Shown: piece after piece, positions 18,478-24,142 of the stretch
Layout: each line of letters opens with the position of its first letter
Position numbering within the stretch: the first letter of the stretch is position 1
Source of the DNA: Escherichia coli
GTDB lineage: Bacteria; Pseudomonadota; Gammaproteobacteria; Enterobacterales; Enterobacteriaceae
Assembly: GCF_003334385.1 (NCBI RefSeq)
Contig: NZ_QOWN01000004.1
Strand: one strand, 5' to 3'
DNA length: 64,000 nucleotides
Made by a program: the position numbers and the translations under genes
Notes under the pieces: generated by a model
Told to the model about the DNA's origin: nothing
Seen by the model: only the letters and a program-made list of their open reading frames with translations
Databases searched by the model: none

Positions 18478-19559
18478 TGCAACCTTTTGGCGTACTTGAC
18501 CGCTATATCGGTAAAACTATTTTCACCACCATCATGATGACGCTGTTCATGCTGGTGTCGCTGTCGGGCATTATCAAATTTGTCGATCAGTTGAAAAAAG
18601 CCGGGCAGGGGAGTTACGACGCGTTAGGCGCAGGAATGTATACCTTGCTGAGCGTGCCGAAAGATGTGCAAATCTTCTTCCCGATGGCGGCTCTGCTTGG
18701 GGCGTTGCTTGGTCTTGGGATGCTGGCGCAGCGCAGCGAACTGGTGGTGATGCAGGCTTCTGGTTTTACCCGTATGCAGGTGGCGCTGTCGGTGATGAAA
18801 ACCGCCATTCCGCTGGTCTTGCTGACGATGGCGATTGGCGAATGGGTCGCGCCGCAGGGCGAGCAGATGGCGCGTAACTACCGTGCGCAGGCGATGTACG
18901 GCGGCTCGTTGCTCTCTACCCAGCAAGGCTTATGGGCGAAAGATGGCAACAACTTCGTCTACATTGAGCGGGTTAAAGGTGACGAAGAGTTAGGTGGCAT
19001 CAGCATTTATGCCTTTAACGAAAATCGTCGTCTGCAATCCGTACGCTATGCCGCTACTGCGAAGTTTGACCCGGAACATAAAGTCTGGCGTCTGTCGCAG
19101 GTTGATGAATCTGATCTGACCAATCCGAAACAGATTACCGGTTCGCAGACGGTGAGCGGCACCTGGAAAACCAACCTCACGCCAGACAAACTGGGCGTGG
19201 TGGCGCTGGACCCGGATGCACTCTCAATCAGCGGTTTGCACAACTACGTGAAGTATCTGAAGTCGAGCGGTCAGGATGCCGGACGTTATCAGCTCAACAT
19301 GTGGAGCAAAATCTTCCAGCCGCTATCCGTGGCGGTGATGATGCTGATGGCGCTGTCGTTCATCTTTGGCCCACTGCGTAGCGTACCGATGGGCGTGCGT
19401 GTGGTCACCGGTATCAGCTTCGGTTTTGTCTTCTACGTACTGGACCAGATCTTCGGCCCGCTGACGTTGGTTTATGGCATCCCGCCGATCATCGGCGCAC
19501 TGTTGCCAAGCGCCAGCTTCTTCTTAATCAGCCTGTGGCTGTTAATGAGAAAATCGTAA
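18477..19559 (+). CDS. lptG: LPS export ABC transporter permease LptG, 360 aa
   Basis: Paralogue of LptF directly downstream, translationally coupled; start at ATG 18477. Confidence 0.9.
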   Translation: MQPFGVLDRYIGKTIFTTIMMTLFMLVSLSGIIKFVDQLKKAGQGSYDALGAGMYTLLSVPKDVQIFFPMAALLGALLGLGMLAQRSELVVMQASGFTRMQVALSVMKTAIPLVLLTMAIGEWVAPQGEQMARNYRAQAMYGGSLLSTQQGLWAKDGNNFVYIERVKGDEELGGISIYAFNENRRLQSVRYAATAKFDPEHKVWRLSQVDESDLTNPKQITGSQTVSGTWKTNLTPDKLGVVALDPDALSISGLHNYVKYLKSSGQDAGRYQLNMWSKIFQPLSVAVMMLMALSFIFGPLRSVPMGVRVVTGISFGFVFYVLDQIFGPLTLVYGIPPIIGALLPSASFFLISLWLLMRKS

Positions 19560-19567
19560 CCAAGCAA

Positions 19568-19586
19568 GGGAGCGAAAGCTCCCTTT
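19568..19586 (+). terminator. Putative terminator hairpin after lptG (GGGAGC-GAAA-GCTCCC + TTT)
   Basis: 6-bp GC stem with a GAAA tetraloop and a short T-run, 9 nt after the lptG stop. Confidence 0.4.
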
Positions 19587-19622
19587 CACATTGTTGATAA
19601 AGTCAAATACGAGTTCGATCGG

Positions 19623-19660
19623 TCCCCTCGCCCCTTTGGGGAGAGGGTTAGGGTGAGGGG
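19623..19660. repeat. GC-rich palindromic intergenic repeat (CCCCTCGCCCCTTTGGGGAGAGGGTTAGGGTGAGGGG)
   Basis: Imperfect palindrome between lptG and yjgR resembling dispersed enterobacterial repeats; family not verified. Confidence 0.35.
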
Positions 19661-19677
19661 CACAGACCGCACCTGAC

Positions 19678-21180
19678 TTACCTTCTTCTCCCCCCCAGCA
19701 AACTCCCCAACATCCCGCGTACAATCTGATTCGTCACCTGGCGGGCGGCGCTTTTCGCCATTGTTTGCACCACACCATCTTTCTTACCGCCGCGTGGTCC
19801 GGTAGTGCCGAACAAAATATCCTTCAATCCACCAAGAATGCCGTCATCCACCGCTACCTCTTTCCCTTTCGCGGGGGGATTATTTTGCTGCTCGGTACTG
19901 GCCTGAAAGCCTTTTTGCAACATCTCATAGGCGGATTCCCGGTCCACCTCATCCTCGTACTTGCCATACACCGGAGAGTGATTAATCAAGCCATTACGCT
20001 CATCTTCCGTCACCGGTCCCATCCGCGAACAAGGCGCAATCACCATCGCCCGTTCCACCACTGAAGGACTTCCTTTCACATCAAGAAACGAGATTAACGC
20101 CTCGCCGGTCCCCAGTTCCTGGATTGCCTTTTCGGTATCAAATGCCGGATTGGCCCGCATGGTTTGCGCCGCAGCTTTTACCGCTTTCTGATCTTTGGGC
20201 GTAAAAGCACGCAAAGCGTGTTGAACGCGATTACCGAGCTGCCCGAGCACATTATCCGGAATATCAGACGGGTTTTGCGAAACGAACCAGACGCCCACGC
20301 CTTTTGAGCGAATAAGCCGTATCACCTGCTCAATCTTATCCAGCAGTACCTGCGGTGCATCGTTAAACAGCAGATGTGCCTCGTCGAAGAAAAACACCAG
20401 TTTTGGTTTCTCCAGATCGCCCGCTTCCGGCAATTGTTCATACAACTCTGAAAGCATCCACAGCAGGCTGGCGGCGTACAGTTTCGGCATCTGATAAAGC
20501 TTCTCGGCGCTGAGGATATTGATAACGCCTTTACCGTTGGTATCGGTGCGCATCCAGTCTTTGATATCCAGCATCGGCTCGCCAAAGAAGTGTGCTGCGC
20601 CTTGCTGTTACAGCGACAACAGTCCGCGCTGGATGGCACCAACCGATGCGCTACTGATATTACCGTACTGATTCTGGAAAGATTTGGCGTTATCGCCGAT
20701 GTACTGGGTAATCGCCCGCAGATCTTTAAAGTCGAGCAGCAACAATCCCTGATCGTCCGCAATGCGGAAGATAATATTCAGCACGCCAGATTGCACATCG
20801 TTGAGATTCAACAGTCGTGCCAGCAACAGCGGCCCCAGATCCGAAACCGTCGCCCGCACCGGATGGCCTTTCTCGCCAAAGATATCCCACACCACCACCG
20901 GATTGGCATGCGGTTGCCAGTCGTTGACGCCGATATTTTTCAGTCTTGCGAGCAGTTTTTCCGACGCCGTTCCTGCCTGCGCGATGCCGGTCAGATCGCC
21001 TTTCACATCGGCCATAAACACCGGAACACCGATTTCCGACAATGACTCTGCCAGTTTTTGCAACGTGACAGTTTTACCCGTCCCCGTTGCGCCAGTAATC
21101 AGCCCGTGACGGTTAGCCATTCCCGGCAATAAAAACAGTTCTGTGTCCGGCGTGCGGGCAATTAACAGGGGTTCGCTCAT
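19678..21180 (-). pseudogene. yjgR: yjgR (DUF853 P-loop NTPase, HerA/FtsK-like) interrupted by an in-frame TAA
   Basis: Two same-frame ORFs (N-terminal 190 aa with Walker [10 protein letters not shown]-terminal 298 aa) separated by TAA (RC of tta at 20608-20610) and 11 sense codons: ...[24 protein letters not shown]...; the pieces sum to the 500 aa expected for YjgR. Confidence 0.75.
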
Positions 21181-21309
21181 GAGATATCCTCCAGTTTCCT
21201 GCCTGGAGTATAGGCAACGGCTGCGCACTCTTCACCGCTAAATTCAGCAGATTGCGAGATGCCTTCCAAAGAGATTTAAGTGCCGGGCGACAGGCACCCG
21301 GCAAAGGGA

Positions 21310-22329
21310 TCAGAAGTCGGCTTTCAGAACCACGCGGTAACGCGCCTTACCGTCGCGCACATGCTTGATGGCATCGTTAATTTTCGACATCGGGAACAGT
21401 TCGGTGGTCGGCGCAACCTTGCTGCGGGCGGCAAAGCGCATCAGCTTACGCAACTCATAAGGCGTGCCGGTAGCAGAGCCAGAGACACTGCGGTCGCCCG
21501 CAATTAACGTAAAGGCCGGAACAGACAGCGGCGTGAGAACCGCACCGACCGTATGGAAATTACCGCCATACGTCAGCGCCTCAAAATAAGGCTGCCAGTC
21601 GAGGCTGACGTTGACGGTGTTGATAATGAGATCGAACTGCCCCGCAAGTGTTTTCAGTGCCTGCGGATCGCGGCTATTCACCACTTTATCGGCACCCATC
21701 GCCAGTACTTCCTGCTCTTTCGCCGGATTAGAACTAAAGGCCGTCACCTCGCATCCCATTGCGTGCAGAAGTTTTATAGCGATATGCCCCAGCCCGCCAA
21801 TACCAATTACCCCAACGCGGCTGGTAGCAGTGATATGGTGCATCAACAGTGGTTTAAAGACCGTGATACCGCCGCACAACAGCGGCCCGGCGGACTCGAT
21901 ATCAATATTTTCTGGCAGTGGAATCACCCATTGCCAGTCCGCACGCAACTTCTCGGCAAAGCCACCGCGATTCATAATTGTTGGTACCGCACCTTGCTCA
22001 CAGTTGATCTGATTACCACTAATACAGGCGTCGCAGTGACCACAGCTACGCGCCGTCCAGCCAATCCCGACACGCTGACCGACCTGCAAACCTTTATCCT
22101 GTGCGGCGCTCCCGAGCGCCACTACGCGACCAATCACCTCATGCCCGGCAATCAGCGGATATTGTGAAAATCCCCATTCATTGTCGATCATCGATAGATC
22201 GGAATGGCAGATCCCGCAATAATCCACCTGCACTTCAATATCTTGTGGCCTCAGCTCACCGGGATCGTACTCATAAACTTCCAGTTCGCCGCCCGCTTCT
22301 TTTGCGGCATAGCTTCTTATCATCGACAT
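21310..22329 (-). CDS. ahr: NADPH-dependent aldehyde reductase Ahr (YjgB), zinc-type alcohol dehydrogenase, 339 aa
   Basis: Zn-ADH motifs ([15 protein letters not shown] structural zinc site, GIGGLGH Rossmann); start at the internal ATG (MSMIRSY...). Confidence 0.9.
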
Positions 22330-22524
22330 TTTTTGGTCCTTCTCTGGTGTTGTCTGGGAAGTGTAGAGCATGGCAGGGCGGGGTGCCTGGAGTGTGACAA
22401 AGGTTACACATCGCTGTATGCAATGCTGAAAATTTCAGCACTTAGCGAGGTGCGAGCAAGCTGGCGCTTGCATGGTGGCGTGCGACAGGTATAATCCACA
22501 ACGTTTTCCGCATACCTCTTCAGT

Positions 22525-22609
22525 GCCGAAGTGGCGAAATCGGTAGACGCAGTTGATTCAAAATCAACCGTAGAAATACGTGCCGGTTCGAGTCCGGCCT
22601 TCGGCACCA
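22525..22609 (+). tRNA. leuX: tRNA-Leu (anticodon CAA), leuX, 85 nt including CCA
   Basis: Sequence GCCGAAGTGGCGAAATCGGTAGACGCAGTTGATTCAAAATCAACCGTAGAAATACGTGCCGGTTCGAGTCCGGCCTTCGGCACCA folds as a type II tRNA with a long variable arm and anticodon CAA at 22559-22561. Confidence 0.92.
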
Positions 22610-22621
22610 TCGGAGCATCAA

Positions 22622-22647
22622 TAGACGTCAACGGACGTCTTTTTTTG
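22622..22647 (+). terminator. leuX rho-independent terminator (GACGTC-AACG-GACGTC + T7)
   Basis: Perfect 6-bp stem, 4-nt loop, followed by TTTTTTT about 13 nt after the tRNA 3' end. Confidence 0.6.
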
Positions 22648-22795
22648 TGCCTGAAATCCAGTATTTACCCATCATTCCCGCTATATTAACTCTCTCAAGG
22701 TCAACCGACTTCAACGTACATCTACCAACAGATGTTGGTACAGATGATGGTATTTCCGGTTCGATAATGCTTGTACCAACAGGGAGGGGATAAGC

Positions 22796-24040
22796 ATGGC
22801 TCTAACAGATATCAAAGTCAGAACAGCTAAGCCAACAGATAAGCAATACAAGTTAACTGATGGCAGTGGTATGCATCTTCTTGTCCACCCTAATGGTTCT
22901 AAGTACTGGCGTTTGCAGTACCGTTTTGACGGCAAGCAAAAGATGCTGGCTTTAGGTGTTTATCCTGACGTGTCGCTTGCCGATGCACGGACTCGCCGTG
23001 ACGACGCTCGTAATTTGTTGGCAAACAACATCGACCCGGGAGACAAAAAGAAAAGTGATAAAATTGAGCAAGAAGAAGCCCGCACTTTTGAACAACTCGC
23101 AGTTGAGTGGCATGCAACAAATAAAAAGTGGTCGGAAGAACATAGCAGGCGAGTACTGAAAAGCCTGGAGGATAATCTGTTTCCAGCTATTGGTAAGCGG
23201 AATATTGCGGATCTCAAAACCCGAGACCTGCTAGCCCCAATCAAAGCCGTTGAACTGTCAGGACGGCTTGAGGTTGCTTCACGATTACAACAGCGAACCA
23301 CGGCAATTATGCGCTATGCCGTGCAGAGTGGTTTACTGGACTATAACCCCGCGCAGGAGATGGTTGGCGCTGTTGCTTCAAGTAACAGACAGCATCGACC
23401 TGCTCTTCAGTTGAAGCGAATCCCAGAACTATTACGGCGCATAGATAGTTATACCGGTAGACCTCTTACTAGACTTGCCGTCGAACTCACGCTCCTGGTA
23501 TTCATTCGTTCAAGTGAACTACGCTTTGCTCGTTGGTCTGAGATCGATTTCGAAACATCAATGTGGACAATACCTGCAGAGCGCGAAGCTATTGACGGAG
23601 TAAAGCATTCACAGCGTGGTTCAAAAATGCGTACGCCTCATCTGGTGCCGCTTTCTCATCAAGCTTTAGCAATTCTTAAAGATGTTTACAAACTTAGTGG
23701 TGATCGCGATTTTGTTTTCATCGGCGATCATGACCATCGCAAACCGATGAGTGAAAACACGGTGAACAAGGCGCTGCGCGTTATGGGTTATGACACGAAG
23801 GTAGAGGTTTGTGGGCACGGTTTCAGGACAATGGCCTGTAGTTCATTGATCGAGTCTGGATTGTGGTCGAGGGATGCAGTGGAAAGGCAGATGAGCCATA
23901 TGGAACGTAACTCAGTACGCGCAGCTTACATTCATAAGGCCGAACATCTTGATGAACGGCGACTGATGCTGCAGTGGTGGGCTGATTTTTTGGATGCGAA
24001 TAGGGAAAGCGAAGTTAGCCCTTATGACTTTGGCAAATAG
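22796..24040 (+). CDS. P4-type tyrosine integrase (IntB-like), 414 aa, adjacent to leuX
   Basis: Tyrosine recombinase catalytic residues in the C-terminal half (R in MRTPHLVPL, HxxR in HGFRTM, Y in RAAYIHK); N-terminal MALTDIKVRTAKP... is typical of P4-family integrases, 187 bp downstream of a tRNA gene. Confidence 0.9.
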   Translation: MALTDIKVRTAKPTDKQYKLTDGSGMHLLVHPNGSKYWRLQYRFDGKQKMLALGVYPDVSLADARTRRDDARNLLANNIDPGDKKKSDKIEQEEARTFEQLAVEWHATNKKWSEEHSRRVLKSLEDNLFPAIGKRNIADLKTRDLLAPIKAVELSGRLEVASRLQQRTTAIMRYAVQSGLLDYNPAQEMVGAVASSNRQHRPALQLKRIPELLRRIDSYTGRPLTRLAVELTLLVFIRSSELRFARWSEIDFETSMWTIPAEREAIDGVKHSQRGSKMRTPHLVPLSHQALAILKDVYKLSGDRDFVFIGDHDHRKPMSENTVNKALRVMGYDTKVEVCGHGFRTMACSSLIESGLWSRDAVERQMSHMERNSVRAAYIHKAEHLDERRLMLQWWADFLDANRESEVSPYDFGK

Positions 24041-24142
24041 TCTAATTCCTGATGCTTGCTATGTTCGATTTTGAAAAGCCGGCTTGAACTATAACCTATA
24101 CTTTTTTATAACTGTATTATTCTGGCGACTCAGAGGTGCACT

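Follow-up and report, generated by a model that had tools for sequence, protein, structure and literature searches.

The locus considered here raises the question of whether a stop codon inside yjgR, a gene found throughout Escherichia coli, reflects a true loss of the gene and, if it does, what kind of loss it is. The gene lies in a stretch of 64,000 nucleotides of chromosome (the window), whose coordinates are used throughout. On the minus strand, yjgR extends over 21180..19678, with its ATG at 21180 and its natural stop ending at 19678. Read in this direction, the sequence is ...CGC GGA CTG TTG TCG CTG TAA CAG CAA GGC..., and the TAA occupies 20610..20608. A preliminary description of this DNA had proposed that this triplet interrupts yjgR in place of a glutamate codon, given as GAA, and both parts of the proposal were borne out. 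For the alignment with a reference-strain gene that it had suggested as a check, strain 14EC001, in which yjgR is intact (L001, 20001-21503), was compared base by base. Of the 1,503 nt, a single one differed: gene position 571 is changed by G>T, which turns codon 191 from GAA into TAA and glutamate into a stop. The mutated base is window position 20610, C>A on the plus strand and G>T on the gene strand. Like 14EC001, all of the 21 distinct intact alleles compared have GAA at codon 191, and at least 40 complete genomes match the whole of yjgR with exactly this mismatch. The features of the locus are as follows.

20608..20610, minus strand: premature ochre stop TAA (E191*), the only mismatch to the yjgR of 14EC001
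19678..21180, minus strand: the whole yjgR frame (500 codons and the natural stop), interpreted as a pseudogene (PF05872; PDB 11kk_A; RefSeq annotation of the orthologue)
20611..21180, minus strand: N-terminal fragment ORF of 190 aa, with the native ribosome-binding site and Walker A and without Walker B
19678..20574, minus strand: residual C-terminal ORF of 298 aa from Met203, with Walker B and the HerA-core-like region
22525-22609: tRNA-Leu gene leuX, anticodon CAA

The two halves had been said to add up to 500 aa, and the count of 190 sense codons, the TAA and 309 sense codons agreed with this. The reading frames on both sides of the TAA encode the YjgR protein, a full-length match to PDB 11kk, and a chance break of an open reading frame at 20608-20610 is ruled out because both flanking frames are YjgR. 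The gene name given in the preliminary description also agreed with RefSeq, in which the orthologous gene between ahr and lptG is annotated as yjgR. The gene order is lptF-lptG on the plus strand, yjgR and ahr on the minus strand, the tRNA-Leu gene leuX, and then an integrase gene and a Dpd island. The order lptF-lptG-yjgR-ahr-leuX and the single mismatch in 1,503 nt to an annotated yjgR indicate orthology. In the window, the frame is not complete and uninterrupted, and at codon 191 it carries a premature stop where its relatives have a sense codon.

The consequence of the stop can be judged from the architecture of the protein. When the stop was reverted, YjgR matched the Pfam family HerA_C (PF05872, formerly DUF853) over residues 5-500 and model positions 3-502 of 502 (E = 6e-254), so that one domain spans the protein. 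It also matched PDB 11kk_A, the 'HerA like helicase YjgR', over its full length (1107 bits, ~99% identity over 500 residues); this structure was deposited with six chains. Both motifs of a P-loop NTPase are present in the reverted protein, Walker A (GATGTGKT) at residues 30-37 and Walker B (VFFFDE) at residues 262-267, and the stretch of residues ~250-376 can be aligned with the catalytic cores of the HerA structures 8wiv and 4d2i and with HerA profiles. E191* puts Walker A and Walker B on separate ORFs. The N-terminal piece keeps Walker A, as had been described, and the 309 codons past the stop hold Walker B. Since the stop falls between the two motifs of one HerA_C domain, a null allele is expected.

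The G>T change at gene position 571 would thus act by placing an ochre stop at codon 191 of a core hexameric HerA-like P-loop ATPase. From the native start, only 190 residues would be translated, and the product would contain the P-loop and be devoid of Walker B, the catalytic glutamate and the remaining ATPase core. Judging from the positions of the motifs, this product should neither hydrolyse ATP nor build a normal hexamer, and the E191* allele is most likely null. As lptG is convergent with yjgR and no gene in the same orientation lies downstream, a polar effect is not expected.

YjgR of E. coli K-12 (b4263; PDB 11kk) is likewise encoded between ahr and lptG, and it agrees with the reverted protein in its motifs and its single-domain architecture. 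Its codon 191 is GAA, whereas the window allele has TAA and gives residues 1-190 only from the native start. The HerA/FtsK-superfamily hexameric ATPases, which include archaeal HerA, defence-system HerA, CedD and VirB4, have the P-loop ATPase core in common with YjgR, but the NCBIfam similarities are far under the family cut-offs. YjgR has no partner nuclease or defence genes adjacent in an operon and is a stand-alone core gene. Membership of a defence system was rejected, because PADLOC gave partial HerA and mad8 similarities only and there is no operon partner. Our literature search on yjgR, DUF853 and HerA-like proteins found incidental mentions only and no functional study of YjgR.

The gene is generally retained in the species. 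A yjgR match was found in 5,426 of 5,426 complete genomes, and the median dN/dS over 203 allele pairs was 0.044, pointing to strong purifying selection. On the other hand, the allele of the window is rare. The 81-mer around the TAA, tested on two haplotypes, had an exact match in none of the 5,426 complete RefSeq E. coli genomes. In a scan of public metagenome contigs, made with N at position 571 of the query, the base was G in 45 of 45 contigs. At the protein level, intact parental YjgR was found on at least 1,000 contigs, compared with 14 contigs for the 298-aa fragment and 21 for the 190-aa fragment, most of which just end at codon 190 and are not evidence for the TAA. The 190-aa product itself (P0016) is recorded, as an exact match, in both Logan and ENA.

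This rarity, with the allele missing from all 45 metagenome contigs and, on the tested haplotypes, from all 5,426 complete RefSeq genomes, could be taken to mean that the true base is G, that codon 191 is GAA and that yjgR is intact, the stop being a sequencing or assembly error. G>T (C>A) substitutions are also a known class of oxidative-damage artefact. However, the identical base is present in the Logan de novo assembly of run ERR1948963 (L002/L014), in which a 29-kb contig carries the TAA with no graph break there; this is a separate assembly, but it would represent the same data if the window assembly came from ERR1948963. The 11,550 nt retrieved from this contig are 100% identical to window 19631-31180, including a lineage SNP at 28097, and the index lists the contig carrying the TAA for 2 samples and gives 5 additional similar places. 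The surrounding sequence also argues against an error. When window 8440-45000 (~36 kb) was compared with strains SCU-125 and GN06667, there were ~9 SNPs, the change at 20610 among them, and no indels, and the 21 other genes checked in this region were all intact. The differences from SCU-125 comprise 3 synonymous changes (yjgN, valS and holC), 2 intergenic changes and 3 missense changes (dpdG and dpdJ), and they look like natural variation rather than noise. Moreover, G571T is also found in SRR15732004 (L007), in which the haplotype is 3.5% divergent from that of the window. There, haplotype-specific SNPs 13 nt upstream and 29 nt downstream of position 571 flank the change, which indicates that E191* arose in that sample as an independent event. 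We therefore regard an erroneous base call as unlikely.

If the stop is real, the gene might still function in two pieces, the 190-aa fragment and a 298-aa fragment made by re-initiation at Met203 reassembling into an active ATPase. In favour of this, the in-frame ATG of Met203 starts 34 nt past the TAA, and gene callers predict the 298-aa ORF as a gene of its own. However, the predicted anti-SD pairing before Met203 is only -2.7 kcal/mol, against -9.3 at the native start, and residues 191-202 would be absent. The restart product would be without Walker A, and the break cuts one HerA_C domain, leaving Walker A on one side and Walker B on the other. The stop was found in 0 of the 5,426 complete genomes on the tested haplotypes, and other broken alleles break elsewhere. 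With a split that is not conserved and a weak ribosome-binding site for the second ORF, the locus does not resemble a naturally split two-ORF ATPase, and we find a working two-piece enzyme scarcely credible. Programmed recoding or suppression is not indicated either, since the TAA is not conserved among the orthologues. A suppressor tRNA was considered and rejected; leuX, the only tRNA gene in the window, has the normal CAA anticodon. A search of Rfam over 19000-23000 gave no family other than this tRNA. With no RNA family at the stop and unremarkable antisense ORFs, an overlapping or antisense feature at this place was likewise rejected.

The second occurrence of E191* raises the further possibility that loss around codons 191-193 is positively selected, in some niche or in culture, or that position 571 is hypermutable. 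Besides the two haplotypes with E191*, the stop Q193*, two codons off, occurs in two samples, and position 570 is the precise end of many Logan contigs. A study of mutator lines in range expansion (bioRxiv 10.1101/355404) lists yjgR among the genes in which loss of function was linked to larger colonies, which is a weak lead for adaptive loss. Against this, the ascertainable stretch offers 22 possible nonsense SNPs, and with ~6 events the probability of at least one coincidence is ~0.5; the second E191* fits chance recurrence. The lesions of all types are spread over codons 25-193, the metagenome contigs, an unbiased set, have G in 45 of 45 cases, and the hairpin at the site does not exceed shuffled sequences in stability (z = -0.39). 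The median dN/dS given above points to general retention. The contig ends are also not informative: the look-up by exact protein in a very large collection selects contigs of this kind, and contigs likewise start at 606/607. For this reason, seven Logan contigs ending at position 570 were rejected as evidence of graph branches at 571.

Two local mechanisms were examined at the same site. A hairpin-templated or quasi-palindrome mutation was rejected, as the fold is unremarkable by the same z score and is unchanged by the mutation. In the CTGTT/AACAG inverted repeat, inspected by eye, perfecting the repeat would need G>C and not G>T. Taken together, a selective or mutational hotspot at codons 191-193 seems a most improbable explanation of the window allele. 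The broader claim that selection or a mutational preference repeatedly truncates YjgR near these codons in independent lineages of E. coli is also, in our estimate, very unlikely to be correct; if it were true, losing YjgR, or having a fragment with Walker A only, would be advantageous in some niche or during culture.

The public data contain other losses of the gene. There are ~15 other sporadic knock-out alleles of yjgR, including the nonsense alleles Q159*, Q169* and Q193* in public assemblies, a 5-nt deletion at 513, single-base indels at 441, 457, 461, 467, 504, 543 and 558, some of which may be sequencing errors, and the larger lesions of a 26-nt duplication and a 20-nt deletion. Like E191*, these pseudogenes are restricted to lineages, hit the N-terminal half of the gene and are rare compared with the intact allele, and they also leave the 298-aa C-terminal ORF, but the positions and types of the lesions differ. 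One of them, an insertion of T after nt 409 (codon 137), is carried by one haplotype in many samples (represented by six retrieved sequences) and was found in at least 12 places. This seems to be a pseudogene lineage that has become established and is more widespread than E191*, and it is indexed for more places (11 further similar places). Apart from these alleles, a run of 7 G lies at the 3' end of yjgR (window ~19690-19700, gene positions 1485-1491). In the two metagenome contigs L051 and L057 it is read as G8 or as G9, a difference that would affect the last few residues only and that reflects either a tract prone to slippage or an error of assembly.

Several observations were made in the surroundings of the gene. 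The intergenic region between yjgR and lptG (19560-19677) contains a GC-rich, imperfect palindromic repeat-like element (…CCCTCACCCTAACCCTCTCCCCAAAGGGGCGAGGGGAC…) with no Rfam match, which we take to resemble the boxC-type intergenic repeats of E. coli. Adjoining leuX is a complete-looking Dpd (7-deazaguanine DNA modification) island (window ~22525-49000) with a tyrosine integrase gene and the genes dpdA, dpdB, dpdE-K and dpdD. Window 8001-33000 is covered to at least 80% in one place by 44 of the 5,426 complete genomes, which indicates that the island is accessory. In dpdG, the lineage of the window carries two missense changes private to it, A244E and L257F. Over window 1-8227, the identity to the nearest relatives, SCU-125 and GN06667, is 97.35%, and past that stretch it rises to 99.9%. 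The two parts meet at an indel-rich junction (8228-8440) a short way downstream of argF, and this sharp step in divergence is probably a recombination boundary. Window 45001-64000 is ~100% identical to several complete genomes, in which the match is broken into two parts by a mobile element, a group II intron ltrA or IS66, that is absent from the window.

Considering these results, we hold it highly probable that E191* is a genuine and recent point mutation confined to one E. coli lineage, that it inactivates yjgR, and that it joins the many sporadic knock-outs that public data show for this non-essential gene. The yjgR of the window has no second defect, which suggests that the inactivation is evolutionarily very young. 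The loss of yjgR would appear to carry no strong fitness cost. On the basis of the sequence comparisons, yjgR in this lineage can most probably be regarded as a real, rare and ordinary pseudogene.

For annotation, it means that a single yjgR pseudogene with an internal stop (E191*) is the appropriate label for the locus in this lineage, and not two short 'HerA-like' genes. Beyond this and its use as a natural knock-out, E191* matters little. As a knock-out, it would be a natural yjgR null allele in a near-isogenic background and could form a ready-made comparison pair with strains such as SCU-125 and GN06667. Such a comparison could help to find the function of YjgR, a core ATPase with a solved structure.
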